IMG/VR virus record: IMGVR_UViG_2565956710_000004
DNA length: 41,214 nucleotides
Source of the DNA: a virus
Taxonomy: Duplodnaviria; Heunggongvirae; Uroviricota; Caudoviricetes
Reading direction: 5' to 3' (one strand)
The notes beneath the pieces were generated by a model that was not told where the DNA came from, did no database searches, and saw only the letters and a list, made by a program, of their open reading frames with translations. This document shows, in pieces, positions 4,210 through 41,214 of this stretch (position 1 is its first letter; the number at the start of each line of letters is the position of its first letter). Made by a program: the position numbers and the translations under genes.

Positions 4210-4214
4210 CCGTT

Positions 4215-5270: not shown

Positions 5271-5274
5271 GTTT

Positions 5275-15642: not shown

Positions 15643-15666
15643 ACCCTCTGTTGCCAGCTACATGCT
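15643..15666 (+). terminator. Rho-independent terminator (tR'-like) upstream of lysis genes
   Basis: Stem GCCAGC (15643-15648) / GCTGGC (15654-15659), 5-nt loop TACAT, then TTTTTTATT; the Q-antiterminated terminator is expected here. Confidence 0.6.
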
Positions 15667-15792
15667 GGCTTTTTTATTCCAGGCTTGCGGGGAGCATCAA
15701 CTCCGTGCTTTGTCGTTAAATTACCCCGTGAGCCTAATTTCTGACATTTAACGTCCCGACCTTTTGTCGGCGGCGAAACATTGGCTATTCAT

Positions 15793-17344: not shown

Positions 17345-17824
17345 CTTATTATCCTGCATTGTTAAAAACGGCAGAATCCTATGTGACAACAATTAAACGA
17401 TAGTTAAATGGATTGATGAAAATTAAAACTACACAGGTGGGCTCAGACTATTGGAGGAAGTTGGGGACACTCAGAATCCTGTGGAATGAAATAAACCGGT
17501 CTATCCGTCCATTACCCTTTTAGCTGCGCTGTATCGTCGCCGTATTCCCGCATTAACCATGACCGTAGCCCGACGGGGAATTCCTTCTGCGTGAGTGTGC
17601 GGGAATAATTAAAAACGATGCACACCGGGTTTTTACCGCGTTAATGATTCGCGGGTTTATCCCGGTGCGATGGTGGAAGAAACAGGAAGCTGTATTACAG
17701 AAAGTGCTACTACTGTATCCCGATGCGATGTATGTAATGTGAGTCAGATAATGGCACAGGATGTGGTGATGTGGCAGTCTGGAACACAGGATATATTGTC
17801 AGAATAAGACCCGTAGGAATAAAA

Positions 17825-18151
17825 ATGAAAAGACGCCTTTTACTACTTTTTCTGTTATCTGTCCTGGCAGTGGGATGCTCGCAGCAAAAAGCTGATGAGC
17901 CCCGGCAATTAGTGACGGTGTATCCACGATATCCGGAATATGCTGCAGCAAATTATATCAAGGGGCTGGTTGAGGTTAAGTTCGATATTGGTGCTGATGG
18001 GACTGTGACACGGATCGTTTTTCTCCGCTCAGAGCCTCATAATTTGTTTCGTGATGAAGTGGTGAAGGCCATGGCGAAATGGCGATTTGAAAAGAATCGC
18101 CCCTGTCAGGGAGTGAAGAGACAATTTATCTTTACGCCGTCACGTCCTTGA
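17825..18151 (+). CDS. Putative lipoprotein
   Basis: 108 aa from ATG 17825; signal peptide plus lipobox MKRRLLLLFLLSVLAVGCSQ, then a soluble domain. Between bor and cos, where lambda carries small envelope-protein ORFs. Confidence 0.5.
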   Translation: MKRRLLLLFLLSVLAVGCSQQKADEPRQLVTVYPRYPEYAAANYIKGLVEVKFDIGADGTVTRIVFLRSEPHNLFRDEVVKAMAKWRFEKNRPCQGVKRQFIFTPSRP

Positions 18152-18514
18152 TGCTTCTAGGTAGAGAGGGGCTGGAAGCAGGAGAAAAATGAAAGAGCCA
18201 GCGGTTATATTTTTGTCATGGCTGACGAGGAATGATGGAAGAAGGCGTTGTATGCCACACAACGCCTCACTGTTCATTTCTTCTTTTTCTCTGGTGGAAC
18301 CCGATGAATAAGAGTTGCACTGGTTTCCGATGAGATGGCGATATACTCGGGCAAAGTATGCTGGCAGTTTTCCAACTGGTCAAAAATACCTGCTCTCGTC
18401 TGTTGCAATGCCTGCAGCATGCGGCGGCAATGCGCCTTGCTTTTACTAACCATCTTTCCTTCCTCTATCAGTCGCTGCGTGAACTCATCATGGAATACCA
18501 GGTAAATGCGGATG

Positions 18515-18766
18515 TTATCGGTTTTGGCTACGCAGCATAGTACAAAACGGACAGGTGCATCCCGGGACGGGGGAGGCGTCACATGTCCCTGTGATGGTTG
18601 TTCCGGGTAATGTACTGTGTGGGGCATAAAAATGTCCGATAATTTTACTTTCTACCGCAGTTAGTTGATTCGTTGGTCCTGGTAGCACATTGGGCGAGGA
18701 TTTAAATGCCAGGCAACTGAAGGATGATGTCGCAAGGGAGATAGCGAGAATATTTCTGATTTTCAT
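18515..18766 (-). CDS. Hypothetical small secreted protein
   Basis: 83 aa from ATG 18764-18766 with N-terminal signal-like segment MKIRNILAISLATSSFSCLA; overlaps another minus-strand ORF (18274-18627), so only one of the two is likely real. Confidence 0.3.
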   Translation of the reverse strand: MKIRNILAISLATSSFSCLAFKSSPNVLPGPTNQLTAVESKIIGHFYAPHSTLPGTTITGTCDASPVPGCTCPFCTMLRSQNR

Positions 18767-18914
18767 TTGATGATGCCTCTGTGTGAAATGACGGTAAACG
18801 ACGCACTTGTGCCGGCACATAATAGCAAGCACCATAATAGATCAGATTCGATTCTTGCTGTAAGTGATAATTATTCTCGTTTTCGGGTCCTTTCCGTCGA
18901 TCCAACAGGTTACG

Positions 18915-18926
18915 GGGCGGCGACCT
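18915..18926 (+). other. cosN cohesive-end site (12-nt GGGCGGCGACCT)
   Basis: Exact lambda cohesive-end sequence, preceded by the lambda right-end sequence ...CGATCCAACAGGTTACG and followed by a cosB-like region up to Nu1 (19104), about 189 bp upstream of Nu1 as in lambda. Confidence 0.85.
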
Positions 18927-19103
18927 CGCGGGTTTTCGCTATTTATGAAAATTTTCCGGTTTAAGGCGTTTCCGTTCTTCTTCGCCGTAACTTAATGTTT
19001 TTATTTAAAACACTCCCTGAAAAGAAAGGAAACGACAGGTGCTGAAAACGGGCTTTTTGGCCTCTGTCGTTTCCTTTCTCTGTTTTTGTCCGTGGAATGA
19101 GCA

Positions 19104-19623
19104 ATGGAAGTCAACAAAAAGCAGCTGGCTGACATTTTCGGCGCGAGTATCCGTACTATTCAGAACTGGCAGGAGCAGGGAATGCCCGTTCTGCGAGGCG
19201 GTGGGAAGGGTAATGAGGTGCTTTATGACTCTGCCGACGTCATAAAATGGTATGCCGAAAGGGATGCTGAAATTGAGAACGAAAAGCTGCGCCGGGAGGT
19301 TGAAGAACTGCGACAGGCCAGCGAGACAGATCTCCAGCCAGGGACTATTGAGTACGAACGCCATCGACTTACGCGTGCGCAGGCCGACGCACAGGAGCTG
19401 AAAAATGCCAGAGACTCCGCTGAAGTGGTGGAAACCGCATTCTGTACTTTCGTGCTGTCGCGGATCGCAGGTGAAATTGCCAGTATTCTCGACGGGATCC
19501 CCCTGTCGGTGCAGCGGCGTTTTCCGGAACTGGAAAACCGACATGTTGATTTCCTGAAACGGGATATCATCAAAGCCATGAACAAAGCAGCCGCGCTGGA
19601 TGAACTGATACCGGGGTTGCTGA

Positions 19624-19649
<26 letters not shown>
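19104..19649 (+). CDS. nu1: Terminase small subunit Nu1
   Basis: 181 aa MEVNKKQLADIFGASIRTIQNWQEQGMPVLRGGGKGNEVLYDSA..., near-identical to lambda Nu1. Confidence 0.95.
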
Positions 19650-23330
<3,681 letters not shown>

Positions 23331-24671: not shown

Positions 24672-25004
24672 ATGGCGACAAAAGAAGAGTTTAACCATTA
24701 CCAGCCGCTGGGTAACAGTGATCCGGCTCATACAGCAATTGCGCCTGGCGGATTGAGTGCGAAAACGCCTGCAATGACCCCGCTGATGCTGGATGGCACT
24801 ACCCGTAAGCTGGTTGTGTGGGATGGCACCACCGACGGTGCAGCCGTTGGCATTCTGGCGGTTGCTGCTGACCAGACCAGCACCACACTGACGTTCTACA
24901 AGTCCGGCTCGTTCCGTTATGAGGATGTGCTCTGGCCGGAGGCTGCCAGCGACGAGACTAAAAAACGGACCGCGTTTGCCGGAACGGCAATCAGCATCGT
25001 TTAA
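24672..25004 (+). CDS. D: Head decoration protein D
   Basis: 110 aa ...[33 protein letters not shown]...[10 protein letters not shown], lambda gpD. Confidence 0.95.
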
Positions 25005-25021
25005 TCTTCCCCTTCATCAAC

Positions 25022-25047
25022 AAAGGCCGCCTGTGCGGCTTTTTTTA
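25022..25047 (+). terminator. Hairpin with T-run between D and E (partial terminator/attenuator)
   Basis: Stem GGCCGC / GCGGC flanked by AAA and TTTTTTT (AAAGGCCGCCTGTGCGGCTTTTTTT). Confidence 0.4.
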
Positions 25048-25059
25048 TGGAAATAATTT

Positions 25060-26085
25060 ATGTCTGTATATACAACCGCAGAATTACTGGCATCGACCCA
25101 GCATCACTTTAAGTTCGATCCGCTGTTTCTGCGCCTGTTTTTCCGTGAAACCTATCCTTTCACCACGGAAAAAGTCTATCTCTCACAAATTCCGGGACTG
25201 GTAAACATGGCGCTGTACGTTTCGCCGATTGTTTCCGGTGAGGTTATCCGATCCCGTGGCGGCTCCACCTCTGAATTTACGCCGGGTTATGTCAAACCCA
25301 AGCATGAGGTGAATCCGCAGATGACCCTGCGTCGCCTGCCGGATGAAGATCCGCAGAACCTGGCTGACCCGGCTTACCGTCGTCGCCGTATTATTCGGCA
25401 GAATATGCTGGATGAAAATCTGGCGATTGCCCAGGTCGAAGAGATGCAGGCAGTTTCTGCCGTGCTTAAGGGCAAATATACCATGACCGGTGAAGCCTTC
25501 GATCCGGTTGAGGTGGATATGGGCCGCAGTGAGGCGAATAACATCACGCAGTCCGGCGGCACGGAGTGGAGCAAGCGTGACAAGTCCACGTATGACCCGA
25601 CCGACGATATCGAAGCCTACGCGCTGAACGCCAGCGGTGTGGTGAATATCATCGTGTTTGATCCGAAAGGCTGGGCGCTGTTCCGTTCCTTCAAAGCCGT
25701 CAAGGAGAAGCTGGATACCCGTCGCGGCTCTCATTCCGAGCTGGAGACAGCGGTAAAAGACTTGGGCAAAGCGGTGTCCTATAAGGGAATGTATGGCGAT
25801 GTGGCCATCGTCGTGTATTCCGGACAGTACGTGGAAAACGGCGTCAAAAAGAACTTCCTGCCGGACAACACGATGGTGCTGGGGAACACTCAGGCTCGCG
25901 GTCTGCGCACCTATGGCTGCATTCAGGATGCGGACGCACAGCGCGAAGGCATTAACGCCTCTGCCCGTTACCCGAAAAACTGGGTGACCACCGGCGATCC
26001 GGCGCGTGAGTTCACCATGATTCAGTCAGCACCGCTGATGCTGCTGGCTGATCCTGATGAGTTCGTGTCCGTACAACTGGCGTAA
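25060..26085 (+). CDS. E: Major capsid protein E
   Basis: 341 aa, lambda gpE. Confidence 0.95.
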   Translation: MSVYTTAELLASTQHHFKFDPLFLRLFFRETYPFTTEKVYLSQIPGLVNMALYVSPIVSGEVIRSRGGSTSEFTPGYVKPKHEVNPQMTLRRLPDEDPQNLADPAYRRRRIIRQNMLDENLAIAQVEEMQAVSAVLKGKYTMTGEAFDPVEVDMGRSEANNITQSGGTEWSKRDKSTYDPTDDIEAYALNASGVVNIIVFDPKGWALFRSFKAVKEKLDTRRGSHSELETAVKDLGKAVSYKGMYGDVAIVVYSGQYVENGVKKNFLPDNTMVLGNTQARGLRTYGCIQDADAQREGINASARYPKNWVTTGDPAREFTMIQSAPLMLLADPDEFVSVQLA

Positions 26086-26125
26086 TCATGGCCCTTCGGG
26101 GCCATTTCTCTCGGTGGAGGAGTCC

Positions 26126-26521
26126 ATGACGAAAGATGAACTGATTGCCCGTCTCCGCTCGCTGGGTGAACAACTGAACCGTGATGTCAGCCTGACGGGG
26201 ACGAAAGAAGAACTGGCGCTCCGTGTGGCAGAGCTGGAAGAGGAGCTTGATGACACGGATGACGCTGCCGGTCAGGACACATCTGTCAGCCCGGAAAATG
26301 CGCTGACCGGACATGAAAATGAGGTGGTATCAGCGCAGCCGGATACCGTGACTGATACGGCTGATCTGGTCACGGTTGTGGCACTGGTGACGCTGCATAC
26401 TGATGCACTTCACGCCACGCGGGATGAACCTGTGGCATTTGTGCTGCCGGGAACGGCGTTCCGTGTCTCTGCCGGTGTGGCAGCTGAAATGACAGAGCGC
26501 GGCCTGGCCAGAATGCAATAA
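26126..26521 (+). CDS. FI: DNA-packaging / head completion protein FI
   Basis: ATG 26126 after GGAGG; MTKDELIARLRSLGEQLNRDVSLTGTKEELALRVAELEEELDD..., lambda gpFI. The track start at 26057 is an upstream extension. Confidence 0.9.
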   Translation: MTKDELIARLRSLGEQLNRDVSLTGTKEELALRVAELEEELDDTDDAAGQDTSVSPENALTGHENEVVSAQPDTVTDTADLVTVVALVTLHTDALHATRDEPVAFVLPGTAFRVSAGVAAEMTERGLARMQ

Positions 26522-26532
26522 CGGGAGGCGCT

Positions 26533-26886
26533 GTGGCTGATTTCGATAACCTGTTCGATGCTGCCATTGCCCGCGCCGATGAAACGATACGCGGGTACAT
26601 GGGAACGTCAGCCACCATGACATCCGGTGAGCAGTCCGGTGCTGTGATACGTGGTGTTTTTGATGACCCTGAAAATATCAGCTATGCCGGACAGGGCGTG
26701 CGCGTTGAAGGCTCCAGCCCGTCCCTGTTTGTCCGGACTGATGATGTGCGGCAGCTGCGGCGCGGCGACACGCTGACCATCGGTGAGGAAAACTTCTGGA
26801 TAGACCGGATTTCGCCGGATGATGGCGGAAGCTGTCATCTCTGGCTTGGGCGGGGCGTACCGCCTGCCGTTAACCGTCGCCGCTGA
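26533..26886 (+). CDS. FII: Head-tail connector FII
   Basis: 117 aa MADFDNLFDAAIARADETIRGYMGTSA..., lambda gpFII. Confidence 0.9.
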   Translation: MADFDNLFDAAIARADETIRGYMGTSATMTSGEQSGAVIRGVFDDPENISYAGQGVRVEGSSPSLFVRTDDVRQLRRGDTLTIGEENFWIDRISPDDGGSCHLWLGRGVPPAVNRRR

Positions 26887-26897
26887 AAGGGGGATGT

Positions 26898-27476
26898 ATG
26901 GCCATAAAAGGTCTTGAGCAGGCCGTTGAAAACCTCAGCCGTATCAGCAGAACGGCGGTGCCCGGTGCCGCCGCAATGGCCATTAACCGCGTTGCTTCAT
27001 CCGCGATATCGCAGTCGGCGTCACAGGTTGCCCGTGAGACAAAGGTACGCCGGAAACTGGTAAAGGAAAGGGCCAGGCTGAAAAGGGCCACGGTCAAAAA
27101 TCCGCAGGCCAGAATCAAGGTTAACCGGGGGGATTTGCCCGTAATCAGGCTGGGTAACGCGCGGGTTGTCCTGTCCCGACGCAGGCGTCGTAAAAAGGGG
27201 CAGCGTTCATCCCTGAAAGGTGGCGACAGCGTGCTTGTGGTGGGAAACCGTCGTATTCCCGGCGCGTTTATTCAGCAACTGAAAAATGGCCGGTGGCATG
27301 TCATGCAGCGCGTGGCCGGGAAAAACCGTTACCCCATTGATGTGGTGAAAATCCCGATGGCAGTGCCGCTGACCACGGCGTTTAAACAGAATATTGAGCG
27401 GATACGGCGTGAACGTCTTCCGAAAGAGCTGGGCTATGCGCTGCAGCATCAACTGAGGATGGTAATAAAGCGATGA
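26898..27476 (+). CDS. Z: Tail completion protein Z
   Basis: 192 aa, lambda gpZ. Confidence 0.9.
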   Translation: MAIKGLEQAVENLSRISRTAVPGAAAMAINRVASSAISQSASQVARETKVRRKLVKERARLKRATVKNPQARIKVNRGDLPVIRLGNARVVLSRRRRRKKGQRSSLKGGDSVLVVGNRRIPGAFIQQLKNGRWHVMQRVAGKNRYPIDVVKIPMAVPLTTAFKQNIERIRRERLPKELGYALQHQLRMVIKR

Positions 27477-27868
27477 AACATACAGAACTCCGTGCAGCCG
27501 TACTGGATGCACTGGAAAAACATGACACCGGGGCGACGCTTTTTGATGGTCGCCCCGCTGTTTTTGATGAGGAGGATTTTCCGGCAGTTGCCGTTTATCT
27601 CACCGGCGCTGAATACACGGGCGAAGAGCTGGACAGCGATACCTGGCAGGCGGAGCTGCATATTGAAGTTTTCCTGCCTGCTCAGGTGCCGGATTCAGAG
27701 CTGGATTCGTGGATGGAGTCCCGGATTTATCCGGTGATGAGCGATGTCCCGGCACTGTCAGATTTGATCACCAGTATGGTGGCCAGTGGCTATGACTACC
27801 GGCGCGACGATGATGCGGGCCTGTGGAGTTCAGCCGATCTGACTTATGTCATTACCTATGAAATGTGA
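27473..27868 (+). CDS. U: Tail terminator protein U
   Basis: 131 aa [54 protein letters not shown]..., lambda gpU. Confidence 0.9.
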
Positions 27869-27875
27869 GGACGAT

Positions 27876-28616
27876 ATGCCTGTACCAAATCCAGTAATGC
27901 CGGTGAAAGGGGCCGGGACCACCCTGTGGGTTTATAAGGGGAACGGTGACCCTTATGCGAACCCGCTTTCAGACGTTGACTGGTCGCGTCTGGCTAAAGT
28001 TAAAGACCTGACGCCCGGCGAACTGAGCGCTGAGTCCTATGACGACAGCTATCTCGATGATGAAGATGCGGACTGGACTGCGACCGGGCAGGGGCAGAAA
28101 TCTGCCGGAGATACCAGCTTCACGCTGGCGTGGATGCCCGGAGAGCAGGGGCAGCAGGCGCTGCTGGCGTGGTTTAATGAAGGGGATACCCGTGCCTATA
28201 AAATCCGCTTCCCGAACGGCACGGTCGATGTGTTCCGCGGCTGGGTCAGCAGTATCGGTAAGGCGGTGACGGCGAAGGAAGTGATCACCCGCACGGTGAA
28301 AGTCACCAACGTGGGACGTCCGTCGATGGCAGAAGATCGCAGCACGGTGACGGCGACAACCGGCATGACGGTGACACCCGCCAGTGCTTCCGTAGTGAAA
28401 GGGCAGAGCACTACGCTGACCGTGGCATTCCAGCCGGAGGGCGCAACCGACAAGAGCTTCCGTGCGGTGTCTGCGGATAAAACAAAAGCCACCGTGTCGG
28501 TCAGCGGTATGACCATCACCGTGAACGGCGTTGCTGCAGGCAAGGTCAACATTCCGGTTGTATCCGGTAATGGTGAGTTTGCTGCGGTTGCAGAAATCAC
28601 CGTCACCGCCAGTTAA
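27876..28616 (+). CDS. V: Major tail tube protein V
   Basis: 246 aa from ATG 27876 ([22 protein letters not shown]...), lambda gpV including the C-terminal Ig-like domain. Confidence 0.9.
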
Positions 28617-28631
28617 TCCGGAGAGTCAGCG

Positions 28632-29054
28632 ATGTTCCTGAAAACCGAATCATTTGAACATAACGGCGTGACCGTCACGCTTTCTGAACTGTCAGCCCTG
28701 CAGCGTATTGAGCATCTCGCCCTGATGAAACGGCAGGCAGAACAGGCGGAGTCAGACAGCAACCGGAAGTTTACTGTGGAAGACGCCATCAGAACCGGTG
28801 CTTTTGTGGTAGCGATGTCCCTGTGGCATAACCATCCGCAGAAGACAAAGCTGCCTTCCATGAATGAAGCCGTTAAACAGATTGAGCAGGAAGTGCTTAC
28901 CACCTGGCCTACAGAGGCAATTTCTCATGCTGAAAACGTGGTGTACCGGCTGTCCGGTATGTATGAGTTTGTGGTGAATGATGCCCCTGAACAGGCAGAG
29001 GACGCCGGGCCTGCAGAGCCTGTTTCTGCGGGAAAGTGTTCGACGGTGAGCTGA
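28632..29054 (+). CDS. G: Tail assembly chaperone G
   Basis: 140 aa, lambda gpG. Confidence 0.9.
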   Translation: MFLKTESFEHNGVTVTLSELSALQRIEHLALMKRQAEQAESDSNRKFTVEDAIRTGAFVVAMSLWHNHPQKTKLPSMNEAVKQIEQEVLTTWPTEAISHAENVVYRLSGMYEFVVNDAPEQAEDAGPAEPVSAGKCSTVS

Positions 29055-29470
29055 GTTTTGCCCTGAAACTGGCGCGTGAGATGGGGCGACCTGACTGGCG
29101 CGCCATGCTTGCCGGGATGTCATCCACAGAGTATGCCGACTGGCACCGCTTTTACAGTACCCATTATTTTCATGATGTTCTGCTGGATATGCACTTTTCC
29201 GGGCTGACGTACACCGTGCTCAGCCTGTTTTTCAGCGATCCGGATATGCATCCGCTGGATTTCAGTCTGCTGAACCGGCGTGAGGCTGACGAAGAGCCTG
29301 AAGATGATGTGCTGATGCAGAAAGCGGCAGGGCTTGCCGGAGGCGTCCGCTTTGCCCCGGACGGAAATGAAGTTATCCCCGCTTCCCCGGATATGGCGGG
29401 CATGACGGAGGATGACGTAATGCTGATGACAGTATCAGAAGGGATCGCAGGAGGAGTCCGGTATGGCTGA
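28632..29470 (+). CDS. T: Tail assembly chaperone G-T fusion made by programmed -1 ribosomal frameshift
   Basis: Slippery heptamer G GGA AAG at 29030-29036 near the 3' end of G; the -1 frame continues as ...KVFDGELSFALKLAREMGRPDW... (lambda T) to the stop at 29468-29470. Confidence 0.8.
29030..29036 (+). other. Programmed -1 frameshift slippery site (GGGAAAG) for G-T
   Basis: Heptamer read in-frame as G GGA AAG in G; identical to the lambda G/T slippery sequence. Confidence 0.8.
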
Positions 29471-32024
29471 ACCGGTAGGCGATCTGGTCGTTGATTTAAG
29501 TCTGGATGCGGCCAGATTTGACGAGCAGATGGCCAGAGTCAGGCGTCATTTTTCCGGTACGGAAAGTGATGCGAAAAAAACAGCGGCAGTCGTTGAACAG
29601 TCGCTGAGCCGACAGGCGCTGGCTGCACAGAAAGCGGGGATTTCCGTCGGGCAGTATAAAGCTGCCATGCGTATGCTGCCTGCGCAGTTCACTGACGTGG
29701 CCACGCAGCTTGCAGGCGGGCAAAGTCCGTGGCTGATCCTGCTGCAACAGGGTGGTCAGGTGAAGGACTCCTTCGGCGGGATGATCCCCATGTTCAGGGG
29801 GCTTGCCGGTGCGATCACCCTGCCGATGGTCGGGGCCACCTCGCTGGCGGTGGCGACCGGTGCGCTGGCGTATGCCTGGTATCAGGGCAACTCAACCCTG
29901 TCCGATTTCAACAAAACGCTGGTCCTTTCCGGCAATCAGTCGGGGCTGACGGCAGATCGCATGCTGGTCCTGTCCAGAGCCGGGCAGGCGGCAGGGCTGA
30001 CGTTTAACCAGACCAGCGAGTCACTCAGCGCACTGGTTAAGGCGGGGGTAAGCGGTGAGGCTCAGATTGCGTCCATCAGCCAGAGTGTGGCGCGTTTCTC
30101 CTCTGCATCCGGCGTGGAGGTGGACAAGGTCGCTGAAGCCTTCGGGAAGCTGACCACAGACCCGACGTCAGGGCTGACAGCGATGGCGCGTCAGTTCCAT
30201 AACGTGACGGCGGAGCAGATTGCGTATGTTGCTCAGTTGCAGCGTTCCGGCGATGAGGCCGGGGCATTGCAGGCGGCGAACGAGGCCGCAACGAAAGGAT
30301 TTGATGACCAGACCCGCCGCCTGAAAGAGAACATGGGCACGCTGGAGACCTGGGCAGACAGGACAGCACGGGCATTCAAATCCATGTGGGATGCGGTGCT
30401 GGATATTGGTCGTCCTGATACCGCGCAGGAGATGCTGATTAAGGCAGAGGCTGCGTTTAAGAAAGCAGACGACATCTGGAATCTGCGCAAGGATGATTAT
30501 TTTGTTAACGATGAAGCGCGGGCGCGTTACTGGGATGATCGTGAAAAGGCCCGTCTTGCGCTTGAAGCCGCCCGAAAGAAGGCTGAGCAGCAGACTCAAC
30601 AGGACAAAAATGCGCAGCAGCAGAGCGATACCGAAGCGTCACGGCTGAAATATACCGAAGAGGCGCAGAAGGCTTACGAACGCCTGCAGACGCCGCTGGA
30701 GAAATATACCGCCCGTCAGGAAGAACTGAATAAGGCACTGAAAGACGGAAAAATCCTGCAGGCAGATTACAACACGCTGATGGCGGCGGCGAAAAAGGAT
30801 TATGAAGCGACGCTGAAAAAGCCGAAACAGTCCGGCGTGAAGGTGTCTGCGGGCGATCGTCAGGAAGACAGTGCTCATGCGGCCCTGCTGACGCTTCAGG
30901 CAGAACTCCGGACGCTGGAGAAGCATGCCGGAGCGAATGAGAAAATCAGCCAGCAGCGCCGGGATTTATGGAAGGCGGAAAATCAGTTCGCGGTACTGGA
31001 GGAGGCGGCACAACGTCGCCAGCTGTCCGCACAGGAGAAATCCCTGCTGGCGCATAAAGATGAGACGCTGGAGTACAAACGCCAGCTGGCTGCACTTGGC
31101 GATAAGGTCACGTATCAGGAGCACCTGAACGCGCTGGCGCAGCAGGCGGATAAATTCGCACAGCAGCAACGGGCAAAACGGGCAGCCATTGATGCGAAAA
31201 GCCGGGGGGTGACTGACCGGCAGGCAGCGTGGGAAGCTACGGAACAGCGTCTGAAGGAACAGTATGGCGATAATCCGCTGGCGCTGAATAACGTCTTGTC
31301 AGAGCAGAAAAAGACCTGGGCGGCTGAAGACCAGCTTCGCGGGAGCTGGATGGCTGGCCTGAAGTCCGGCTGGAGCGAGTGGAAAGAGAGTGCCACGGAC
31401 AGTATGTCGCAGGTTAAAAGTGCTGCCACGCAGACCTTTGATGGTATTGCACAGAATATGGCGGCGATGCTGACCGGCAGTGAGCAGAACTGGCGAAGCT
31501 TCACCCGTTCCGTGCTGTCCATGATGACAGAAATTCTGCTTAAGCAGGCAATGGTGGGGATTGTCGGGAGTATCGGCAGCGCCATTGGCGGGGCTGTTGG
31601 TGGCGGCGCATCCGCGTCAGGCGGTACAGCCATTCAGGCCGCTGCGGCGAAATTCCATTTTGCAACCGGAGGATTTACGGGAACCGGCGGCAAATATGAG
31701 CCAGCGGGGATTGTTCACCGTGGTGAATTTGTCTTCACGAAGGAGGCAACCAGTCGGATTGGCGTGGGGAATCTCTACCGGCTTATGCGCGGCTATGCCA
31801 CCGGTGGTTATGTCGGTACACCGGGCAGCATGGCGGACAGCCGGTCGCAGGCGTCCGGGAAGTTTGAGCAGAATAACCATGTGGTGATTAACAACGACGG
31901 CACGAACGGTCAGATAGGGCCACAGGCGCTGAAGGCTGTTTATGACGTAGCCCGTAAGGCGGCAATGGATGTTGTGACCGGGCAGATGCGCGATGGTGGT
32001 CTGTTCTCCGGAGGTGGACGATGA
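29463..32024 (+). CDS. H: Tail tape measure protein H
   Basis: 853 aa, lambda gpH length and sequence. Confidence 0.95.
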   Translation: MAEPVGDLVVDLSLDAARFDEQMARVRRHFSGTESDAKKTAAVVEQSLSRQALAAQKAGISVGQYKAAMRMLPAQFTDVATQLAGGQSPWLILLQQGGQVKDSFGGMIPMFRGLAGAITLPMVGATSLAVATGALAYAWYQGNSTLSDFNKTLVLSGNQSGLTADRMLVLSRAGQAAGLTFNQTSESLSALVKAGVSGEAQIASISQSVARFSSASGVEVDKVAEAFGKLTTDPTSGLTAMARQFHNVTAEQIAYVAQLQRSGDEAGALQAANEAATKGFDDQTRRLKENMGTLETWADRTARAFKSMWDAVLDIGRPDTAQEMLIKAEAAFKKADDIWNLRKDDYFVNDEARARYWDDREKARLALEAARKKAEQQTQQDKNAQQQSDTEASRLKYTEEAQKAYERLQTPLEKYTARQEELNKALKDGKILQADYNTLMAAAKKDYEATLKKPKQSGVKVSAGDRQEDSAHAALLTLQAELRTLEKHAGANEKISQQRRDLWKAENQFAVLEEAAQRRQLSAQEKSLLAHKDETLEYKRQLAALGDKVTYQEHLNALAQQADKFAQQQRAKRAAIDAKSRGVTDRQAAWEATEQRLKEQYGDNPLALNNVLSEQKKTWAAEDQLRGSWMAGLKSGWSEWKESATDSMSQVKSAATQTFDGIAQNMAAMLTGSEQNWRSFTRSVLSMMTEILLKQAMVGIVGSIGSAIGGAVGGGASASGGTAIQAAAAKFHFATGGFTGTGGKYEPAGIVHRGEFVFTKEATSRIGVGNLYRLMRGYATGGYVGTPGSMADSRSQASGKFEQNNHVVINNDGTNGQIGPQALKAVYDVARKAAMDVVTGQMRDGGLFSGGGR

Positions 32025-32350
32025 AAACCTTCCGCTGGAAAGTGAAACCCGGTATGGATGTGGCTTCGGCCCCTTCCGTAAGAAAGGTGCGCTTTGGTGA
32101 TGGCTATTCCCAGCGAGCGCCTGCCGGGCTGAACACTGACCTGAAAACGTACAGCGTGACGCTTTCTGTTCCCCGTTGGGAGGCCGCGGCGCTGGAGTCG
32201 TTTCTGGCTGAGCACGGGGGCTGGAAGGCCTTTCTGTGGACGCCGCCTTATGGCTACCGGCAGATAAAGGTGACCTGCGCAAAATGGTCGTCGCGGGTCA
32301 GTATGTCGCGTGTTGAGTTCAGCGCAGAGTTTGAACAGGTGGTGAACTGA
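32021..32350 (+). CDS. M: Minor tail protein M
   Basis: 109 aa, lambda gpM. Confidence 0.9.
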   Translation: MKTFRWKVKPGMDVASAPSVRKVRFGDGYSQRAPAGLNTDLKTYSVTLSVPRWEAAALESFLAEHGGWKAFLWTPPYGYRQIKVTCAKWSSRVSMSRVEFSAEFEQVVN

Positions 32351-33048
32351 TGCAGGATATCCGGCAGGAAACACTGAATGAATGCACCCGTGCGGAGCAG
32401 TCGGCCAGCGTGGTGCTCTGGGAAATCGACCTGACAGAGGTCGGTGGAGAACGTTATTTTTTCTGTAATGAGCAGAACGAAAAAGGTGAGCCGGTCACCT
32501 GGCAGGGGCGACAGTATCAGCCGTATCCCATTCAGGGGAGCGGTTTTGAACTGAATGGCAAAGGCACCAGTACGCGCCCCACGCTGACGGTTTCTAACCT
32601 GTACGGTATGGTCACCGGGATGGCGGAAGATCTGCAGAGTCTGGTCGGCGGAACGGTGGTCCGGCGTAAGGTTTACGCCCGTTTTCTGGATGCGGTGAAC
32701 TTCGTCAACGGAAACAGTTATGCCGATCCGGAGCAGGAGGTGATCAGCCGCTGGCGCATTGAGCAGTGCAGCGAACTGAGCGCGGTGAGTGCCTCCTTTG
32801 TACTGTCCACGCCGACGGAAACGGATGGCGCTGTTTTTCCGGGACGTATCATGCTGGCCAACACCTGCACCTGGACCTATCGCGGTGACGAGTGCGGTTA
32901 TAGCGGTCCGGCTGTCGCGGATGAATATGACCAGCCAACGTCCGATATCACGAAGGATAAATGCAGCAAATGCCTGAGCGGTTGTAAGTTCCGCAATAAC
33001 GTCGGCAACTTTGGCGGCTTCCTTTCCATTAACAAACTTTCGCAGTAA
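32350..33048 (+). CDS. L: Minor tail protein L
   Basis: 232 aa, lambda gpL. Confidence 0.9.
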   Translation: MQDIRQETLNECTRAEQSASVVLWEIDLTEVGGERYFFCNEQNEKGEPVTWQGRQYQPYPIQGSGFELNGKGTSTRPTLTVSNLYGMVTGMAEDLQSLVGGTVVRRKVYARFLDAVNFVNGNSYADPEQEVISRWRIEQCSELSAVSASFVLSTPTETDGAVFPGRIMLANTCTWTYRGDECGYSGPAVADEYDQPTSDITKDKCSKCLSGCKFRNNVGNFGGFLSINKLSQ

Positions 33049-33052
33049 TCCC

Positions 33053-33796
33053 ATGACACAGACAGAATCAGCGATTCTGGCGCACGCCCGGCGATGTGCG
33101 CCAGCGGAGTCGTGTGGCTTCGTGGTGAGAACGCCGAAGGGGGAAAGATATTTTCCCTGCGTGAATATCTCCGGTGAGCCGGAGGCGTATTTCCGGATGT
33201 CGCCGGAGGACTGGCTGCGGGCAGAGATGCAGGGTGAGATTGTGGCGCTGGTCCACAGCCACCCCGGTGGTCTGCCCTGGCTGAGTGAGGCTGACAGGCG
33301 GCTGCAGGTGCAGAGCGATTTGCCGTGGTGGCTGGTCTGCCGGGGTGAGATTCATAAATTCCGCTGTGTGCCGCATCTTACCGGGCGGCGCTTTGAGCAC
33401 GGGGTGACGGACTGTTACACGCTGTTCCGGGATGCTTATCATCTGGCGGGGATTGAGATGCCGGATTTTCATCGCGGGGATGACTGGTGGCGTCACGGTC
33501 AGAATCTCTATCTGGATAATCTGGAGGCCACAGGGCTGTATCAGGTGCCGTTGTCATCAGCACAACCGGGCGATGTGCTGCTGTGCTGTTTTGGTTCATC
33601 GGTGCCGAATCATGCCGCCATTTACTGTGGTGATGGCGAGCTGCTGCACCATATTCCTGAACAACTGAGCAAACGAGAGAGGTATACCGACAAATGGCAG
33701 CGACGCACACACTCCCTCTGGCGTCACCGGGCATGGCGCGCATCTGCCTTTACGGGGATTTACAACGATTTGGCCGCCGCATCGACCTTCGTGTGA
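33053..33796 (+). CDS. K: Tail assembly protein K (NlpC/P60-like)
   Basis: ATG 33053 (MTQTESAILAHARRCAPAESCGFVV...), lambda gpK. The classical 199-aa lambda annotation begins at the internal Met (about 33197). Confidence 0.9.
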   Translation: MTQTESAILAHARRCAPAESCGFVVRTPKGERYFPCVNISGEPEAYFRMSPEDWLRAEMQGEIVALVHSHPGGLPWLSEADRRLQVQSDLPWWLVCRGEIHKFRCVPHLTGRRFEHGVTDCYTLFRDAYHLAGIEMPDFHRGDDWWRHGQNLYLDNLEATGLYQVPLSSAQPGDVLLCCFGSSVPNHAAIYCGDGELLHHIPEQLSKRERYTDKWQRRTHSLWRHRAWRASAFTGIYNDLAAASTFV

Positions 33797-34365
33797 AAAC
33801 GGGGGCTGAAGCCATCCGGGCGCTGGCCACACAGCTCCCGGCGTTTCGTCAGAAACTGAGCGACGGCTGGTATCAGGTACGGATTGCCGGGCGGGACGTC
33901 AGCACGTCCGGATTGACGGCGCAGTTACATGAGGTTCTGCCTGACGGCGCTGTGATTCATATTGTTCCCAGAGTCGCCGGGGCCAAGTCAGGGGGCGTAT
34001 TCCAGATTGTTCTGGGGGCTACCGCCATTGCCGGATCATTCTTTACTGCCGGAGCCACCCTTGCAGCATGGGGGGCAGCCATTGGGGCCGGTGGTATGAC
34101 CGGTATCCTGTTTTCTCTCGGTGCCAGTATGGTACTTGGTGGTGTGGCGCAGATGCTGGCACCGAAAGCTAGAACTCCCCGTACACAGACAACGGATAAC
34201 GGTAAGCAGAACACCTATTTCTCCTCACTGGATAACATGGTTGCCCAGGGCAATGTTCTGCCTGTTCTGTACGGTGAAATGCGCGTGGGGTCGCGGGTGG
34301 CTTCTCAGGAGATCAGCACGGCAGACGAGGGGGACGGTGGTCAGGTTGTGGTGATTGGTCGTTGA
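33694..34365 (+). CDS. I: Tail assembly protein I
   Basis: 223 aa MAATHTLPLASPGMARICLYGDLQRFGRRIDLRVK..., lambda gpI; overlaps K as in lambda. Confidence 0.9.
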   Translation: MAATHTLPLASPGMARICLYGDLQRFGRRIDLRVKTGAEAIRALATQLPAFRQKLSDGWYQVRIAGRDVSTSGLTAQLHEVLPDGAVIHIVPRVAGAKSGGVFQIVLGATAIAGSFFTAGATLAAWGAAIGAGGMTGILFSLGASMVLGGVAQMLAPKARTPRTQTTDNGKQNTYFSSLDNMVAQGNVLPVLYGEMRVGSRVASQEISTADEGDGGQVVVIGR

Positions 34366-34425
34366 TGAAAAACGTTTTATGTGAAACCGCCTCAGGGCGG
34401 TTTTGTCGTTTCTGGAGCGTGAGGA

Positions 34426-37400
34426 ATGGGTAAAGGCAGCAGTAAGGGGCATACCCCGCGCGAAGCGAAGGACAACCTGAAATCATCCCAGATGCTGAGC
34501 GTGATAGACGCCATCAGTGAAGGGCCGATTGAAGGTCCGGTGGACGGATTAAAAAGTGTGCTGCTGAACAGTACGCCAGTGCTGGACAGTGAGGGGAATA
34601 CCAATATCTCCGGTGTCACGGTGGTTTTCCGGGCAGGTGAGCAGGAGCAGACACCGCCGGAGGGATTTGAATCCTCCGGCTCCGAGACGGTGCTGGGTAC
34701 GGAAGTGAAGTACGACACGCCGATTACCCGGACCATCACGTCTGCAAACATCGACCGTCTGCGCTTTACCTTCGGTGTGCAGGCACTGGTGGAAACCACC
34801 TCAAAGGGGGACCGGAATCCGTCGGAAGTCCGCCTGCTGGTTCAGATACAGCGTAACGGTGGCTGGGTGACGGAAAAAGACATCACCATTAAAGGCAAAA
34901 CCACCTCACAGTATCTGGCCTCGGTGGTGGTGGGTAACCTGCCGCCGCGCCCGTTCAATATCCGGATGCGCAGGATGACGCCGGACAGCACCACAGACCA
35001 GCTGCAGAACAAAACGCTCTGGTCGTCATACACCGAAATCATCGATGTGAAACAGTGCTACCCGAACACGGCACTGGTCGGCGTACAGGTGGATTCGGAG
35101 CAGTTCGGCAGCCAGCAGGTGAGCCGTAATTATCATCTGCGCGGGCGTATTCTGCAGGTGCCGTCGAACTATAACCCGCAGACGCGGCAATACAGCGGTA
35201 TCTGGGACGGAACGTTTAAGCCAGCATACAGCAATAACATGGCCTGGTGTCTGTGGGATATGCTGACCCATCCACGCTACGGCATGGGGAAACGTCTTGG
35301 TGCGGCGGATGTGGACAAATGGGCGCTGTATGTCATCGGCCAGTACTGCGACCAGTCAGTGCCGGACGGCTTTGGCGGCACGGAGCCGCGCATCACCTGT
35401 AATGCGTACCTGACCACACAGCGCAAGGCGTGGGATGTGCTCAGTGATTTCTGCTCGGCGATGCGCTGTATGCCGGTATGGAACGGGCAGACGCTGACGT
35501 TCGTGCAGGACCGACCGTCGGATAAGGTGTGGACCTATAACCGCAGTAATGTGGTGATGCCGGATGATGGCGCGCCGTTCCGCTACAGTTTCAGCGCCCT
35601 GAAAGACCGCCATAATGCCGTTGAGGTGAACTGGATTGACCCGAACAACGGCTGGGAGACGGCGACAGAGCTTGTGGAGGATACGCAGGCCATTGCCCGT
35701 TACGGTCGTAACGTCACGAAGATGGATGCTTTTGGCTGTACCAGCCGGGGGCAGGCACACCGCGCCGGGCTGTGGCTGATTAAAACAGAACTGCTGGAAA
35801 CGCAGACCGTGGACTTCTGCGTGGGCGCAGAAGGGCTTCGCCATGTGCCGGGCGATGTCATTGAAATCTGTGATGATGACTATGCCGGTATCAGCATCGG
35901 CGGGCGCGTGCTGGCGGTAAACAGCCAGACCCGGACGCTGACGCTCGACCGTGAAATCACGCTGCCATCCTCCGGTACCACGCTGATAAGCCTGGTTGAC
36001 GGAAGTGGCAATCCGATCAGCGTGGAGGTTCAGTCCGTCACCGACGGCGTGAAGGTGAAAGTGAGCCGTGTTCCTGACGGTGTTGCTGAATACAGCGTGT
36101 GGGGGCTGAAGCTGCCGACGCTGCGCCAGCGCCTGTTCCGCTGCGTGAGTATCCGTGAGAACGACGACGGCACGTATGCCATCACCGCCGTGCAGCATGT
36201 ACCGGAAAAAGAGGCCATCGTGGATAACGGGGCGTACTTTGACGGCGACCAGAGCGGCACGGTGAATGGTGTCACGCCGCCAGCGGTGCAGCACCTGACC
36301 GCCGAAGTCACCGCAGACAGCGGGGAATATCAGGTGCTGGCGCGCTGGGACACGCCGAAGGTGGTGAAGGGCGTGAGCTTCCTGCTCCGTCTGACCGTAA
36401 CAGCGGATGACGGCAGTGAGCGGCTGGTCAGCACGGCCCGGACGACGGAAACCACATACCGCTTCAGGCAACTGGCGCTGGGGAACTACAGGCTGACAGT
36501 CCGGGCGGTAAATGCGTGGGGGCAGCAGGGCGATCCGGCGTCGGTATCGTTCCGGATTGCCGCACCGGCAGCACCGTCGAGGATTGAGCTGACGCCGGGC
36601 TATTTTCAGATAACCGCCACGCCGCATCTTGCCGTTTATGACCCGACGGTACAGTTTGAGTTCTGGTTCTCGGAAAAGCGGATTACCGATATCAGGCAGG
36701 TTGAAACCACAGCCCGCTATCTTGGTACGGCGCTGTACTGGATAGCCGCCAGTATCAATATCAAACCGGGCCATGATTATTACTTTTATATCCGCAGTGT
36801 GAACACCGTTGGCAAATCGGCATTCGTGGAGGCCGTCGGTCGGGCGAGCGATGATGCGGAAGGTTACCTGGATTTTTTCAAAGGCAAGATAACCGAATCC
36901 CATCTCGGCAAGGAGCTGCTGGAAAAAGTCGAGCTGACGGAGGATAACGCCAGCAGACTGGAGGAGTTTTCGAAAGAGTGGAAGGACGCCAACGATAAGT
37001 GGAATGCCATGTGGGGCGTCAAAATTGAGCAGACCAAAGACGGCAAACATTATGTCGCGGGTATTGGCCTCAGCATGGAGGACACGGAGGAAGGCAAACT
37101 GAGTCAGTTTCTGGTTGCCGCTAACCGTATCGCATTTATTGACCCGGCAAACGGGAATGAAACGCCGATGTTTGTGGCGCAGGGCAATCAGATATTCATG
37201 AACGACGTGTTCCTGAAGCGCCTGACGGCCCCCACCATTACCAGTGGTGGCAGTCCTCCGGTATTTTCCCTGACATCAGACGGAAAGCTGACCGCTAAAA
37301 ATGCGGATATCAGTGGCAGTGTGAATGCGAACGCCGGGACGCTCAACAATGTCACGGTAAATGAAAACTGTACGATTAAGGGCATGCTGGAGGCGACTCA

Positions 37401-37839
37401 GGTCAGAGGTGACTTCGTTAAAGCTGTATCCAAATCATTTCCGAAACAGGCTGGTACGTGGGGTAACACGGAAACACCAAACGGGACGGTTACAGTCACC
37501 ATCAGCGATGATCATAACTTTGACCGTCAAATCATTATTCCGCCCATTATCTTTAACGGAATAGCGTATAGCGATCCGGGAAGTGGTAATAACCCGGGAG
37601 GTACAAGATACACGGGTTATGGTTTTGAAGTTCGCAAAAACGGTGTATTAATCGCATCCAGAGAAACTAAAGGGGCCATTCCCGGTAGCTACAGTGCGGT
37701 TATTGATATGCCGAGTGGCAGGGGAAGCGTCACTCTGGAGTTTAAGGTTTTCCATAAAGGCAATCAGTGGGCAGGTAATATCACCGACTGTACGGTGATT
37801 GTGACCAAAAAAGCCGCTTCCGGCATCAGTATTCGTTGA
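34426..37839 (+). CDS. J: Tail tip attachment protein J (central tail fibre) with divergent C-terminal receptor-binding domain
   Basis: 1137 aa; residues 1 to about 980 track lambda gpJ closely ([20 protein letters not shown]...), while the last about 150 aa are homologous in outline but substantially substituted. Confidence 0.9.
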
Positions 37840-37860
37840 AATTGTTATAACCCATATAAG

Positions 37861-37884
37861 GGCACCAGAAATGGTGCCTTTTTT
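37861..37884 (+). terminator. Rho-independent terminator after J
   Basis: Stem GGCACC / GGTGCC, loop AGAAAT, then TTTTTTATT. Confidence 0.6.
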
Positions 37885-37908
37885 ATTGCAGAAAAGCGAG
37901 AGGTAATT

Positions 37909-38508
37909 ATGCGTAAACTTTATGCCGCCATTTTGTCCGCAGCCATTTGTCTGGCCGTATCCGGTGCGCCTGCATGGGCATCTGAACATCAGTCCACGCT
38001 GAGCGCGGGGTATCTTCATGCCTCGACGAACGTTCCCGGCAGCGATGATCTTAACGGGATTAACGTGAAATACCGTTATGAGTTTACGGACACACTGGGG
38101 CTGGTGACGTCATTCAGCTATGCAGGAGACAAGAATCGCCAGCTTACCCGTTACAGCGATACCCGCTGGCATGAAGATTCCGTGCGTAACCGCTGGTTCA
38201 GCGTGATGGTGGGGCCGTCTGTGCGCGTGAATGAATGGTTCAGCGCGTATGCGATGGCGGGTATGGCTTACAGCCGTGTGTCGACTTTCTCCGGGGATTA
38301 TCTCCGCGTAACTGACAACAAGGGGAAAACGCACGACGTGCTGACCGGAAGTGATGACGGTCGCCACAGCAACACGTCTCTGGCGTGGGGAGCTGGCGTG
38401 CAGTTTAACCCGACCGAATCCGTGGCCATTGATATTGCTTATGAAGGCTCCGGCAGTGGCGACTGGCGCACTGACGGTTTCATCGTGGGTGTCGGTTATA
38501 AGTTCTGA
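37909..38508 (+). CDS. lom: Lom outer-membrane protein (Ail/Lom family)
   Basis: 199 aa with signal peptide; C-terminal ...[27 protein letters not shown] is identical to the lambda Lom C-terminus; interior diverged. Confidence 0.85.
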
Positions 38509-38532
38509 TTAGCCAGGTAACACAGTGTTATG

Positions 38533-38560
38533 ACAGCCCGCCGGTTCAGGCGGGCTTTTT
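38533..38560 (+). terminator. Rho-independent terminator after lom
   Basis: Stem AGCCCGCC / GGCGGGCT, loop GGTTCA, followed by TTTTTT. Confidence 0.7.
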
Positions 38561-38572
38561 TGTGGGGTGAAT

Positions 38573-40633
38573 ATGGCAGTAAAGATTTCAGGTGTACTGA
38601 AAGACGGCACAGGAAAACCGGTACAGAACTGCACAATCCAGCTGAAAGCAAAACGTAACAGCACCACAGTTGTGGTGAACACGGTGGCCTCAGAAAATCC
38701 GGATGAAGCCGGACGTTACAGCATGGATGTTGAGTATGGCCAGTACAGCGTCGCCCTGCTGGTTGAAGGTTTTCCGCCTTCACATGCCGGGACCATCACC
38801 GTGTATGAGGATTCTAAGCCGGGGACATTGAATGATTTTCTGGGCGCTGCAACAGAAGATGATGTTTGTCCGGAGGCACTGTATCGTTTTGAAAAGATGG
38901 TGGAAGAGGCGGCACGCAACGCTGAAGCCGCCTCTCAGAGCGCAGCGGCAGCAAAGAAATCAGAAACAGCAGCGGCATCGTCCAGGAACGCGGCGAAAAC
39001 ATCAGAGACGAATGCAGGTAACAGCGCGAAAGCGGCAGCTTCTTCAAAAACAGCCGCACAAAACGCAGCAACAGCGGCAGAACGTTCAGAGACAAATGCC
39101 CGTGCGTCAGAAGAAGCCTCCGCAGACAGTGAAGAGGCTTCCCGCCGTAATGCAGAGTCAGCCGCTGAAAATGCCGGAGTCGCCACCACAAAAGCGCGGG
39201 AGGCCGCAGCAGACGCAACAAAGGCCGGGCAGAAAAAGGATGAGGCTCTGTCGGCAGCGACACGAGCTGAAAAGGCGGCAGACCGCGCAGAAGCCGCAGC
39301 GGAAGTGACTGCAGAGCCCTGTGCGAATATAGTGCCGCCGCTGCCTGATGTGTGGATACCGTTTAACGATTCACTGGATATGATTGCGGGTTTTTCTCCG
39401 GGCTATAAAAAAATAGCTATTGGTGACGATGTGGTTCAGGTCGCCAGTGATAAACAGGTTAATTTCAGTCGCGCATCAACGGCAACATATATCAACAAAT
39501 CTGGCGAACTGAAAACGGCGGAAATTAATGAGCCGCGATTTGAGTGTGATGGCCTGCTTATTGAGGGACAAAGAACGAACTACATGCTCAATTCGGAAAG
39601 TCCAGCCAGCTGGGGGAAGTCATCAAACATGGATGTGCCCGAAACCGGGACGGATAGTTTTGGTTTTACTTATGGAAAGTTTGTCTGCAACGATTCTCTG
39701 GTTGGGCAAACTTCGGCTATTAATATGGCATCAATTGCTGCAACAAAGTCAGTTGATGTCTCAGGCGATAACAAGTACGTGACAACCTCATGCCGTTTTA
39801 AAACAGAACGACAGGTAAGGTTACGTATACGGTTTGATAAGTATGATGGTAGTGCAACAACTTTTCTTGGCGATGCGTACATTGATACGCAAACGCTTGA
39901 AATTAGTATGACAGGTGGTGCTGCCGGCAGAATTACGGCACGAGTCAGGAAGGATAAGACCACGGGCTGGATTTTTGCAGAGGCAACGATTCAGGCAATT
40001 GATGGTGAGTTAAAAATAGGCTCTCAGATACAGTATTCTCCTGGGCAGGGTGGGGCAACAGTATCTGGTGACTATATTTATCTTGCCACCCCACAAGTAG
40101 AGAATGGGCCGTGTGTATCATCATTTATTATTTCAGGAGGCAGCGCAACGACAAGAGCCAGTGATTTGGTTAGTATCCCCACCAGAAATAATCTTTATAA
40201 GTTACCATTTACTTTTTTACTTGAGATTCATAAAAACTGGGATATTGCACCAAACGCCGCACCCCGCGTGTGGGATATAGCAGCAGCCAATACCGGGCAA
40301 TCAGCAATTGCAGCAATCAACAGAGGTAGTGGTAAGTTATATATGAGTCTGTCAAACCCTTCAGGCTCGTATGTTAATAGCGCAGCGACAGATGTATTTG
40401 CAGAGAAAACCACATTTGGATGTATTGCAAAAGCTGATGGTCACTTTCATGTGGTGACAAATGGTAAAGCGGTTAATGAAGTTTATTGTGAATATAATGG
40501 CGTGACCGCTGATAAAAATATCCGATTTGGAGGGCAGACGAATACTGGAGAACGACATCTGTTTGGCCATATTCGCAATTTCCGCATATGGCATAAAGAA
40601 TTAAATGACAGGCAATTAAAAGAGGTCGTATGA
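38573..40633 (+). CDS. stf: Side tail fibre protein Stf (lambda-like N-terminus, different distal domain)
   Basis: N-terminal about 100 aa MAVKISGVLKDGTGKPVQNCTIQLKAKRNSTTVVVNTVASENPDEAGRYSMDVEYGQYSV... match lambda Stf; then an Ala/Ser/Glu-rich low-complexity shaft and an unrelated C-terminal about 380 aa. Confidence 0.8.
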   Translation: MAVKISGVLKDGTGKPVQNCTIQLKAKRNSTTVVVNTVASENPDEAGRYSMDVEYGQYSVALLVEGFPPSHAGTITVYEDSKPGTLNDFLGAATEDDVCPEALYRFEKMVEEAARNAEAASQSAAAAKKSETAAASSRNAAKTSETNAGNSAKAAASSKTAAQNAATAAERSETNARASEEASADSEEASRRNAESAAENAGVATTKAREAAADATKAGQKKDEALSAATRAEKAADRAEAAAEVTAEPCANIVPPLPDVWIPFNDSLDMIAGFSPGYKKIAIGDDVVQVASDKQVNFSRASTATYINKSGELKTAEINEPRFECDGLLIEGQRTNYMLNSESPASWGKSSNMDVPETGTDSFGFTYGKFVCNDSLVGQTSAINMASIAATKSVDVSGDNKYVTTSCRFKTERQVRLRIRFDKYDGSATTFLGDAYIDTQTLEISMTGGAAGRITARVRKDKTTGWIFAEATIQAIDGELKIGSQIQYSPGQGGATVSGDYIYLATPQVENGPCVSSFIISGGSATTRASDLVSIPTRNNLYKLPFTFLLEIHKNWDIAPNAAPRVWDIAAANTGQSAIAAINRGSGKLYMSLSNPSGSYVNSAATDVFAEKTTFGCIAKADGHFHVVTNGKAVNEVYCEYNGVTADKNIRFGGQTNTGERHLFGHIRNFRIWHKELNDRQLKEVV

Positions 40634-40908
40634 AAGATTTAACTTTGAAGTTTCATGACAAACTGCAGTTTAAGGCCTTCCTGTCATCTCTTGGCTGGGC
40701 GGAAGATGAAGACCTCCAGAATAAACTGTTAGTTGATGAAATTGGTTTCACCTACACAGAAACAGGGGTAACAGAAGAGGGAGAACCTGTCTGTATCCGG
40801 AATGATGGTTATTTTGTCAACATTCGCATTCTTGATGACTTGTTTGATGTTTCTGTATTCTCTGATTATGTCGTGGAGCTGGAAACACCGCTTCGGGAAT
40901 GGAGCTGA
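40630..40908 (+). CDS. Hypothetical protein translationally coupled to stf (possible tail-fibre accessory/assembly factor)
   Basis: ATG 40630 overlaps the stf stop (ATGA); 92 aa, acidic. Occupies the tfa slot but is shorter than and unlike lambda Tfa. Confidence 0.4.
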   Translation: MKDLTLKFHDKLQFKAFLSSLGWAEDEDLQNKLLVDEIGFTYTETGVTEEGEPVCIRNDGYFVNIRILDDLFDVSVFSDYVVELETPLREWS

Positions 40909-40920
40909 AAGGAGGAAATA

Positions 40921-41214
40921 ATGGATATAAGCCCCTTACTTCATGCACTTTGTGCTGTGGCTGCGCAGATACTGGTTGGTCTTTTTACCGGAAACTGGGC
41001 TTACGGAGCGATAGCCGGTTGTACGTTCTTCATTGCGCGTGAACATACCCAGGCAGAATATCGCTGGATTGAAATGTTCGGGCATGGCAAGCGAATGAAT
41101 ATGCCGTGGTGGGGCGGTTTTGATCCGCGAGCTTGGGATGTGGCAAGCCTGATGGATTTTGCTGTGCCGGTGGTGGCGTGTCTGCTGGTCTGGCTGTTGG
41201 TTAATCGTGGGTGA
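40921..41214 (+). CDS. Hypothetical small membrane protein (2 predicted TM segments)
   Basis: Strong SD AAAGGAGG 5-12 nt upstream of ATG 40921; 97 aa with hydrophobic segments at both ends (LLHALCAVAAQILVGLFTG..., ...FAVPVVACLLVWLLV); in the b-region downstream of tail fibres. Confidence 0.4.
   Translation: MDISPLLHALCAVAAQILVGLFTGNWAYGAIAGCTFFIAREHTQAEYRWIEMFGHGKRMNMPWWGGFDPRAWDVASLMDFAVPVVACLLVWLLVNRG

Follow-up and report, generated by a model that had tools for sequence, protein, structure and literature searches.

The window, meaning the whole 41,214-nt stretch of IMG/VR record IMGVR_UViG_2565956710_000004 to which coordinates refer unless another sequence is named, carries gene J on its + strand at 34426–37839, as an intact open reading frame of 1137 aa. 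J follows genes H, M, L, K and I and precedes lom and stf, an order collinear with the annotations of lambda, 434 and Perceval, and its product contains the Pfam domains FNIII-A_GpJ, Phage-tail_3, Ig_J, Ig_J_second, Phage_Tail_Tip and Ig_GpJ_C, all six of which score over their curated cutoffs. Architecture and operon position both fit, and the product is a lambda-family tip attachment (central tail fibre) protein J. The gene divides into two parts of different composition and affinity. Codons 1–969 (34426–37332, + strand; GC 0.578) encode the hub domains, FNIII/Ig domains, helical shaft and beta-prism fibre, and are shared with lambda and 434 alike (97.7% and 99.1% identity, respectively, over aa 1–960). 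Codons 970–1137 (37333–37839, + strand) drop to a GC content of 0.475 and encode a receptor-binding module that we assign to the 434 type (h434), within which the Ig-like C-terminal receptor-binding domain proper occupies 37426–37833 (+ strand; aa 1001–1136), as delimited by Pfam and supported by AlphaFold2 and Foldseek.

Downstream of J, also on the + strand, a terminator-like hairpin with a T run (37858–37881) fills part of the J–lom gap, at a place equivalent to that of an annotated terminator in phage 434. It is followed by a 199-aa gene of the lom family of outer-membrane proteins (37909–38508; PF06316 Ail_Lom, E = 1e-119) and then by the side tail fibre gene stf (38573–40633), which encodes 686 aa from an ATG at 38573, matches the side tail fibre of phage 21 at 98% identity, and combines a PF08400 N-terminal domain with a Laminin_G_3/ConA-like C-terminus. 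In the remainder of the 38573–41214 region, two + strand ORFs of 92 and 97 aa without a Pfam match come after stf; in phage 21 and Perceval, the same stf arrangement leads into the sitDCBA iron/manganese transporter genes, and the window ends just short of that point.

The original prediction held that J stays close to lambda gpJ until about nt 37330 and that its last ~150 aa keep only scattered anchors, and comparison with the lambda reference (NC_001416, 15505–18903) bears out both statements. Overall identity is 89% by BLASTP, but the distribution is uneven: 50-aa blocks are 92–100% identical across aa 1–950, fall to 74% at aa 951–1000, and then to 42%, 30% and 30%. In a five-way alignment, the 97.7% identity of aa 1–960 gives way to 45.8% from aa 961 to the end and 38.1% from aa 1001 to the end, with 22 mismatches in 960 positions before the break against 90 in 166 after it (Fisher p = 9e-65). 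The last shared 13-letter motif ends at aa 969, corresponding to nt 37332, and dense DNA divergence begins at J nt ~2908–2921, or ~37333–37346 in the window. Beyond this junction the two predicted anchors are both present, the first as a 16-letter version of lambda's TRTVTVTDDHPFDRQI and the second as DMPSGRG in place of DMPAGRG. About three indels also separate the tips: a 2-aa insertion just ahead of lambda S1012, a 6-aa insertion near lambda 1049 together with a further insertion of 1–2 aa, and a 6-aa deletion at lambda ~1108–1113. With these indels, and with 45.8% and 38.1% identity over the two C-terminal intervals, the J tip does not fit the lambda-type LamB-binding domain class.

That the divergent segment is the one governing host range, as had been proposed, was supported by both its domain family and its predicted fold. 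Residues 1001–1136 match PF12421 (Ig_GpJ_C), described in Pfam as [quoted passage not shown], with E = 9.4e-26 and a score of 90.9 bits (cutoff 26.2). Given 27 homologues as input, AlphaFold2 returned a model of aa 960–1137 that contained a beta-sandwich at aa 998–1128 (mean pLDDT 81, pTM 0.73). When this model was compared with the PDB by Foldseek, the top four matches were 8xcj, 8xck, 9wcb and 9wca (E = 3e-16 to 4e-15; query-normalised TM-scores 0.69–0.70). Of these, 8xcj and 8xck show the lambda gpJ tip with and without LamB, and 9wcb and 9wca show the A8 gpJ tip with and without OmpC. An HMM match above the gathering score and a modelled fold shared with solved domains thus identify aa 1001–1136 as the gpJ C-terminal Ig-like receptor-binding domain.

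Compared with other lambdoid J proteins, the tip lies far from lambda (45.8% over aa 961–end) and near phage 434 (94.4% over aa 961–1137, 167 of 177 residues). The 434 J protein (OL657226, UMO75286) has the same length, 1137 aa, and aligns without gaps, differing at 19 residues overall; aa 1–960 are 99.1% identical, 130 of 137 residues agree over aa 1001–1137, and indels number zero. At the DNA level, the late half of the window gives a single megablast match to phage 434 that runs unbroken through J. Every mismatch to lambda at J nt 2679–2853 is common to the window and 434, and both then diverge densely from lambda at ~nt 2908–2921; these shared mismatches and the common switch point argue that the C-terminus is the classical 434 host-range allele. 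Identity, collinearity, junction and the linked lom all fit membership of the 434 class, and on this sequence evidence the last ~168 codons of J are the h434 receptor-binding-domain allele, a long-known and common natural allele.

The affinity to 434 extends past the end of J. In 100-nt sliding identities with both edges fine-mapped, the whole block from 37333 to 38430 (+ strand) is unlike lambda (36–67% nt identity) and 434-like, comprising J codons 970–1137, the intergenic hairpin, and lom except for its last ~25 codons. Because the block reaches 38430, it replaces most of lom as well. The encoded Lom protein differs by 1 aa from the 434 version, is identical to that of Perceval, and is 46.5% identical to lambda Lom, consistent with a 434 allele co-inherited with the receptor-binding domain. 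The tip had been described as remodelled; it is better described as a swapped mosaic module, reaching ~600 nt past J, than as altered lambda sequence. Lambda-like similarity resumes from ~38430 to ~38800 and is then lost again, in the region of stf, where the window carries the phage 21-type gene of 686 aa and phage 434 a gene of 437 aa. By its composition, the tail-tip region is a typical lambdoid mosaic of a lambda/434 J body, a 434 tip with 434 lom, and a phage 21 stf with two small ORFs, in which stf is a second, independent host-range determinant besides J.

Within the block, the match to 434 is not uniform. Nucleotide identity to 434 dips to 87–96% over 37296–37780, the receptor-binding-domain part, and stands at 98–100% over the ~700 nt before it and the ~800 nt after it (from 37778 to ~38600), so that divergence across the J C-terminal 177 aa is 8–9% against 0–1% in the flanks. 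Such a local dip points either to a small mosaic patch inside the module or to divergence that ran faster in the tip alone. Strong positive selection was considered as its cause and set aside, since 25 tip codons differ from 434 only synonymously against 10 that differ non-synonymously; a mosaic patch of this kind, or an older split between alleles, is the simpler reading, and the mostly synonymous differences look like ordinary allelic divergence.

The ten substitutions, which in the window J give A970, V978, E980, S1004, Q1008, A1009, N1019, S1049, R1099 and W1115, all occupy recurrently polymorphic positions, as judged from 20 members of the class, with W, R or G at position 1115. Seven lie in the Ig-like domain, and six of these seven (1004, 1008, 1009, 1019, 1099 and 1115) are in or beside predicted loops, some of which align next to lambda residues 1012 and 1107. 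In a study of natural J variation, these two lambda positions were diversifying host-range sites and also sites of lineage-defining indels (PMC6646904).

The identity of the allele bears directly on the receptor. Use of OmpC by phage 434 reportedly goes back to primary work by Hantke (1978) and by Fuerst and Bingham (1978). Phage 434 infects through OmpC, and the 434 J allele confers OmpC use when placed in lambda (PMC3509688, PMC11101478, PMC12502783). In a sequenced lambda h434 imm21 hybrid (OM418627), the switch from lambda to 434 lies inside J at the equivalent of window position ~36500–36600, and from this crossover to codon ~970 lambda and 434 are 93–100% identical, which leaves the tip module with nearly all of the difference inside J. 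Since this hybrid carries 434 stf too, taken by itself it does not separate out the contribution of the J tip. Given that the literature assigns the 434 class to OmpC, and that the window tip is 94–95% identical to 434 without indels, the receptor of this phage is most probably OmpC and not LamB. The expectation of a receptor different from LamB thus gained support from the class assignment, whereas the alternative offered with it, a variant LamB, became the less likely option, as the nearest characterised relative is reported to use OmpC. A literature search covering carriers of the identical tip (Perceval, Ayreon, PhiR49_1 and the Stx1a/Stx2c phages) as well as mEp460 and cdtI turned up no measured receptor.

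That a tip so divergent should still bind LamB, or some variant of it, has a precedent in phage 21, which uses LamB with a tip just 48% identical to that of lambda (PMC11336670), so LamB use is not limited to the lambda allele. Yet the window tip is only 38% and 44% identical to the two LamB-using tips, those of lambda and phage 21, respectively (aa 1001–end), and 94–95% identical to that of 434, which is reported on OmpC; we regard persistent LamB use as very improbable.

A different departure from 434 would leave the class assignment intact and change the specificity of the sub-allele, perhaps restricting the phage to a subset of OmpC variants or directing it to a different general porin, for example OmpF. 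The ten differences at recurrently polymorphic sites, the three states of residue 1115 and the placement of several sites in loops aligned with the lambda 1012 and 1107 hot spots (PMC6646904) are all compatible with such a shift, and engineered chimeras provide a parallel, in that gpJ A8 and 1A2 accept different OmpC variants (PMC11338833), 1A2, an Eligo chimera, being specific for OmpC of the EDL933 type; in phage 21, one J mutation adds OmpC use (PMC11336670). Against it, identity to 434 remains at 94–95% with no indels, the 25 synonymous-only and 10 non-synonymous codons correspond to ordinary allele divergence, and K-12 supports the growth of phages carrying exactly this tip, as it does that of 434. 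As an alternative to 434-like OmpC use, a diverging specificity therefore seems unlikely. A narrower version of the idea deserves tentative mention: with ten substitutions at polymorphic sites and six in or at the edges of loops, the range of OmpC variants could differ from that of 434, and the sub-allele found in LF82 Perceval, Ayreon, PhiR49_1 and O157 Stx1a/Stx2c phages might perhaps recognise other natural OmpC variants through sites 1004, 1008, 1009, 1019, 1049, 1099 and 1115. If so, the 434 class would form a series of finely tuned OmpC-variant specificities, steering which E. coli lineages are open to toxin-carrying and gut prophages.

Returning to the 434-class tip with OmpC as its probable receptor, we asked how widely the allele occurs. 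The window tip DNA is 99.7–100% identical in long-tailed O157 Stx1a/Stx2c phages, Perceval and PhiR49_1; phage Ayreon, whose host is K-12, shares the C-terminal 171 aa exactly (100%); and phages cdtI, Evi, 2B8, mEp460, ev243, 2851, WGPS6 and Tritos carry tips that are 93–99% identical. Among 244 phage records with a matching tip, 74 belong to the 434 class at an identity of at least 90%. Across 5426 complete E. coli genomes, 434-type receptor-binding-domain DNA was present in 2114 (~39%), 710 of them at 99% identity or more, whereas lambda-type domain DNA (megablast) was confined to a separate and much smaller set of 98, with the 5 lambda-type records among the matches listed all being laboratory strains. 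The lambda tip is thus the unusual one, and the window tip the common one.

These surveys also bear on whether J might sit in a decaying prophage, with its C-terminus accumulating changes but serving no function. Defective prophages are common in E. coli, and nothing more specific speaks for this reading here; the ORF is intact within an intact H-M-L-K-I-J-lom-stf context, plaque-forming Perceval has exactly this J protein, and the segment is 99–100% conserved in hundreds of genomes, leaving functionless drift barely credible. Perceval, a prophage of the adherent-invasive E. coli strain LF82 that forms siphovirus particles and plaques on K-12 DH10B, shares its late region with the window (OV696612, CAH1234814), with 1137 of 1137 J residues identical (100%) and 98.7% DNA identity over window positions 25001–41214. 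The early halves differ in their mosaic make-up, that of the window being closest to PhiR47_2. In Perceval, the interval from Q to the lysis genes also holds an nmpC-like porin gene, which the window lacks: no nmpC/lc-like porin ORF was found in the Q–lysis interval (14692–16085). The idea that a prophage porin gene hints at OmpC replacement in lysogens was accordingly dropped for this phage.

Two further features of the early half are recorded here as observations in their own right. Between replication gene P and the nin/Q region, a two-gene cassette on the + strand (10310–12789) consists of a gene whose 548-aa product joins a PUA-like domain (PF24405, 2e-43) to a calcineurin-like metallophosphoesterase domain, and a second gene for a 278-aa HAD-family hydrolase matching PADLOC model PDLC03008 "Hydrolase" (4.5e-57); this cassette is a possible anti-phage defence moron. 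On the − strand at 5275–6781, directly downstream of a cI-like repressor (6830–7585), a 315-aa DUF6414 protein (PF19952, 1e-17) is paired with a 137-aa ORF without a Pfam match, in the position that rexAB occupies in lambda.

How the tip would act can be proposed by analogy with the solved lambda gpJ–LamB and A8 gpJ–OmpC structures. In the lambda complex, four distal loops of each Ig-like domain sit in the porin mouth, the domains spread, the fibre twists and the tail tip opens (PMC11101478). For the present phage, the J tip was acquired by mosaic exchange as the h434 allele together with the 434-type lom. The central tail fibre would end in three Ig-like C-terminal domains whose distal loops enter the extracellular mouth of a trimeric porin, which for this allele is most probably OmpC rather than LamB. 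Binding would splay the three domains, and the resulting rearrangement of the fibre would open the tail tip for DNA ejection. We consider this combination of a 434-class tip, OmpC and a porin-triggered opening to be a likely account and the best explanation as a whole; allele identity, boundaries, domain family, fold and prevalence are its observed elements, to which OmpC use and the trigger are added as what 434 and the solved complexes lead one to expect.

Since the J tip sets which outer-membrane protein a lambda-like phage requires, it also sets which strains can be infected or lysogenised. A tip of the 434/OmpC type predicts spread among OmpC-expressing gut E. coli, and predicts that down-regulation of lamB would give the host no protection. 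The assignment is useful for annotation and for the choice of tips in engineered delivery particles. For phage biology it brings nothing new, as the exact J protein was previously deposited (Perceval), and earlier work already covers the allele as well as its exchange as a module and its natural variation; in this respect the finding is an ordinary one.

Comparison with other gpJ tip classes places these results among known systems. The lambda gpJ tip (8xcj, 8xck) belongs to the same PF12421 family, has the same Ig-like fold and occupies the same place at the end of the fibre (Foldseek E = 3e-16, TM-score 0.70), but it is only 38% identical over aa 1001–end, differs by indels at the loops near lambda 1012, 1049 and 1107, and binds LamB, whereas the 434 class is reported on another porin. 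The A8/phi330-type tip (9wcb; PV189401) likewise shares the fold and binds OmpC from a lambda-type fibre (PMC11338833, PMC12502783), yet it is 47–49% identical to the window tip and constitutes a separate allele class. Assignment of the window tip to that OmpC-binding class was rejected on identities of 46.8% to phi330 (aa 1001–end, five-way alignment) and 48–49% to 9wcb/9wca (Foldseek), and at this distance common OmpC contacts between the A8/phi330 and 434 classes are not to be assumed. The receptor-binding domains of phage 21 J (2694–6176 of the phage 21 sequence), reported to use LamB, and of the phi330 tail fibre (17482–20610 of the phi330 sequence), a member of the A8/9wcb class shown to use OmpC, are 79.5% identical, so that a switch of receptor is possible within the gpJ tip family at fairly high identity. 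Likeness of tip sequence does not guarantee the same receptor (PMC11336670, PMC12502783), and it is at 94–95% identity to 434, without indels, that the window tip finds its closest characterised counterpart.
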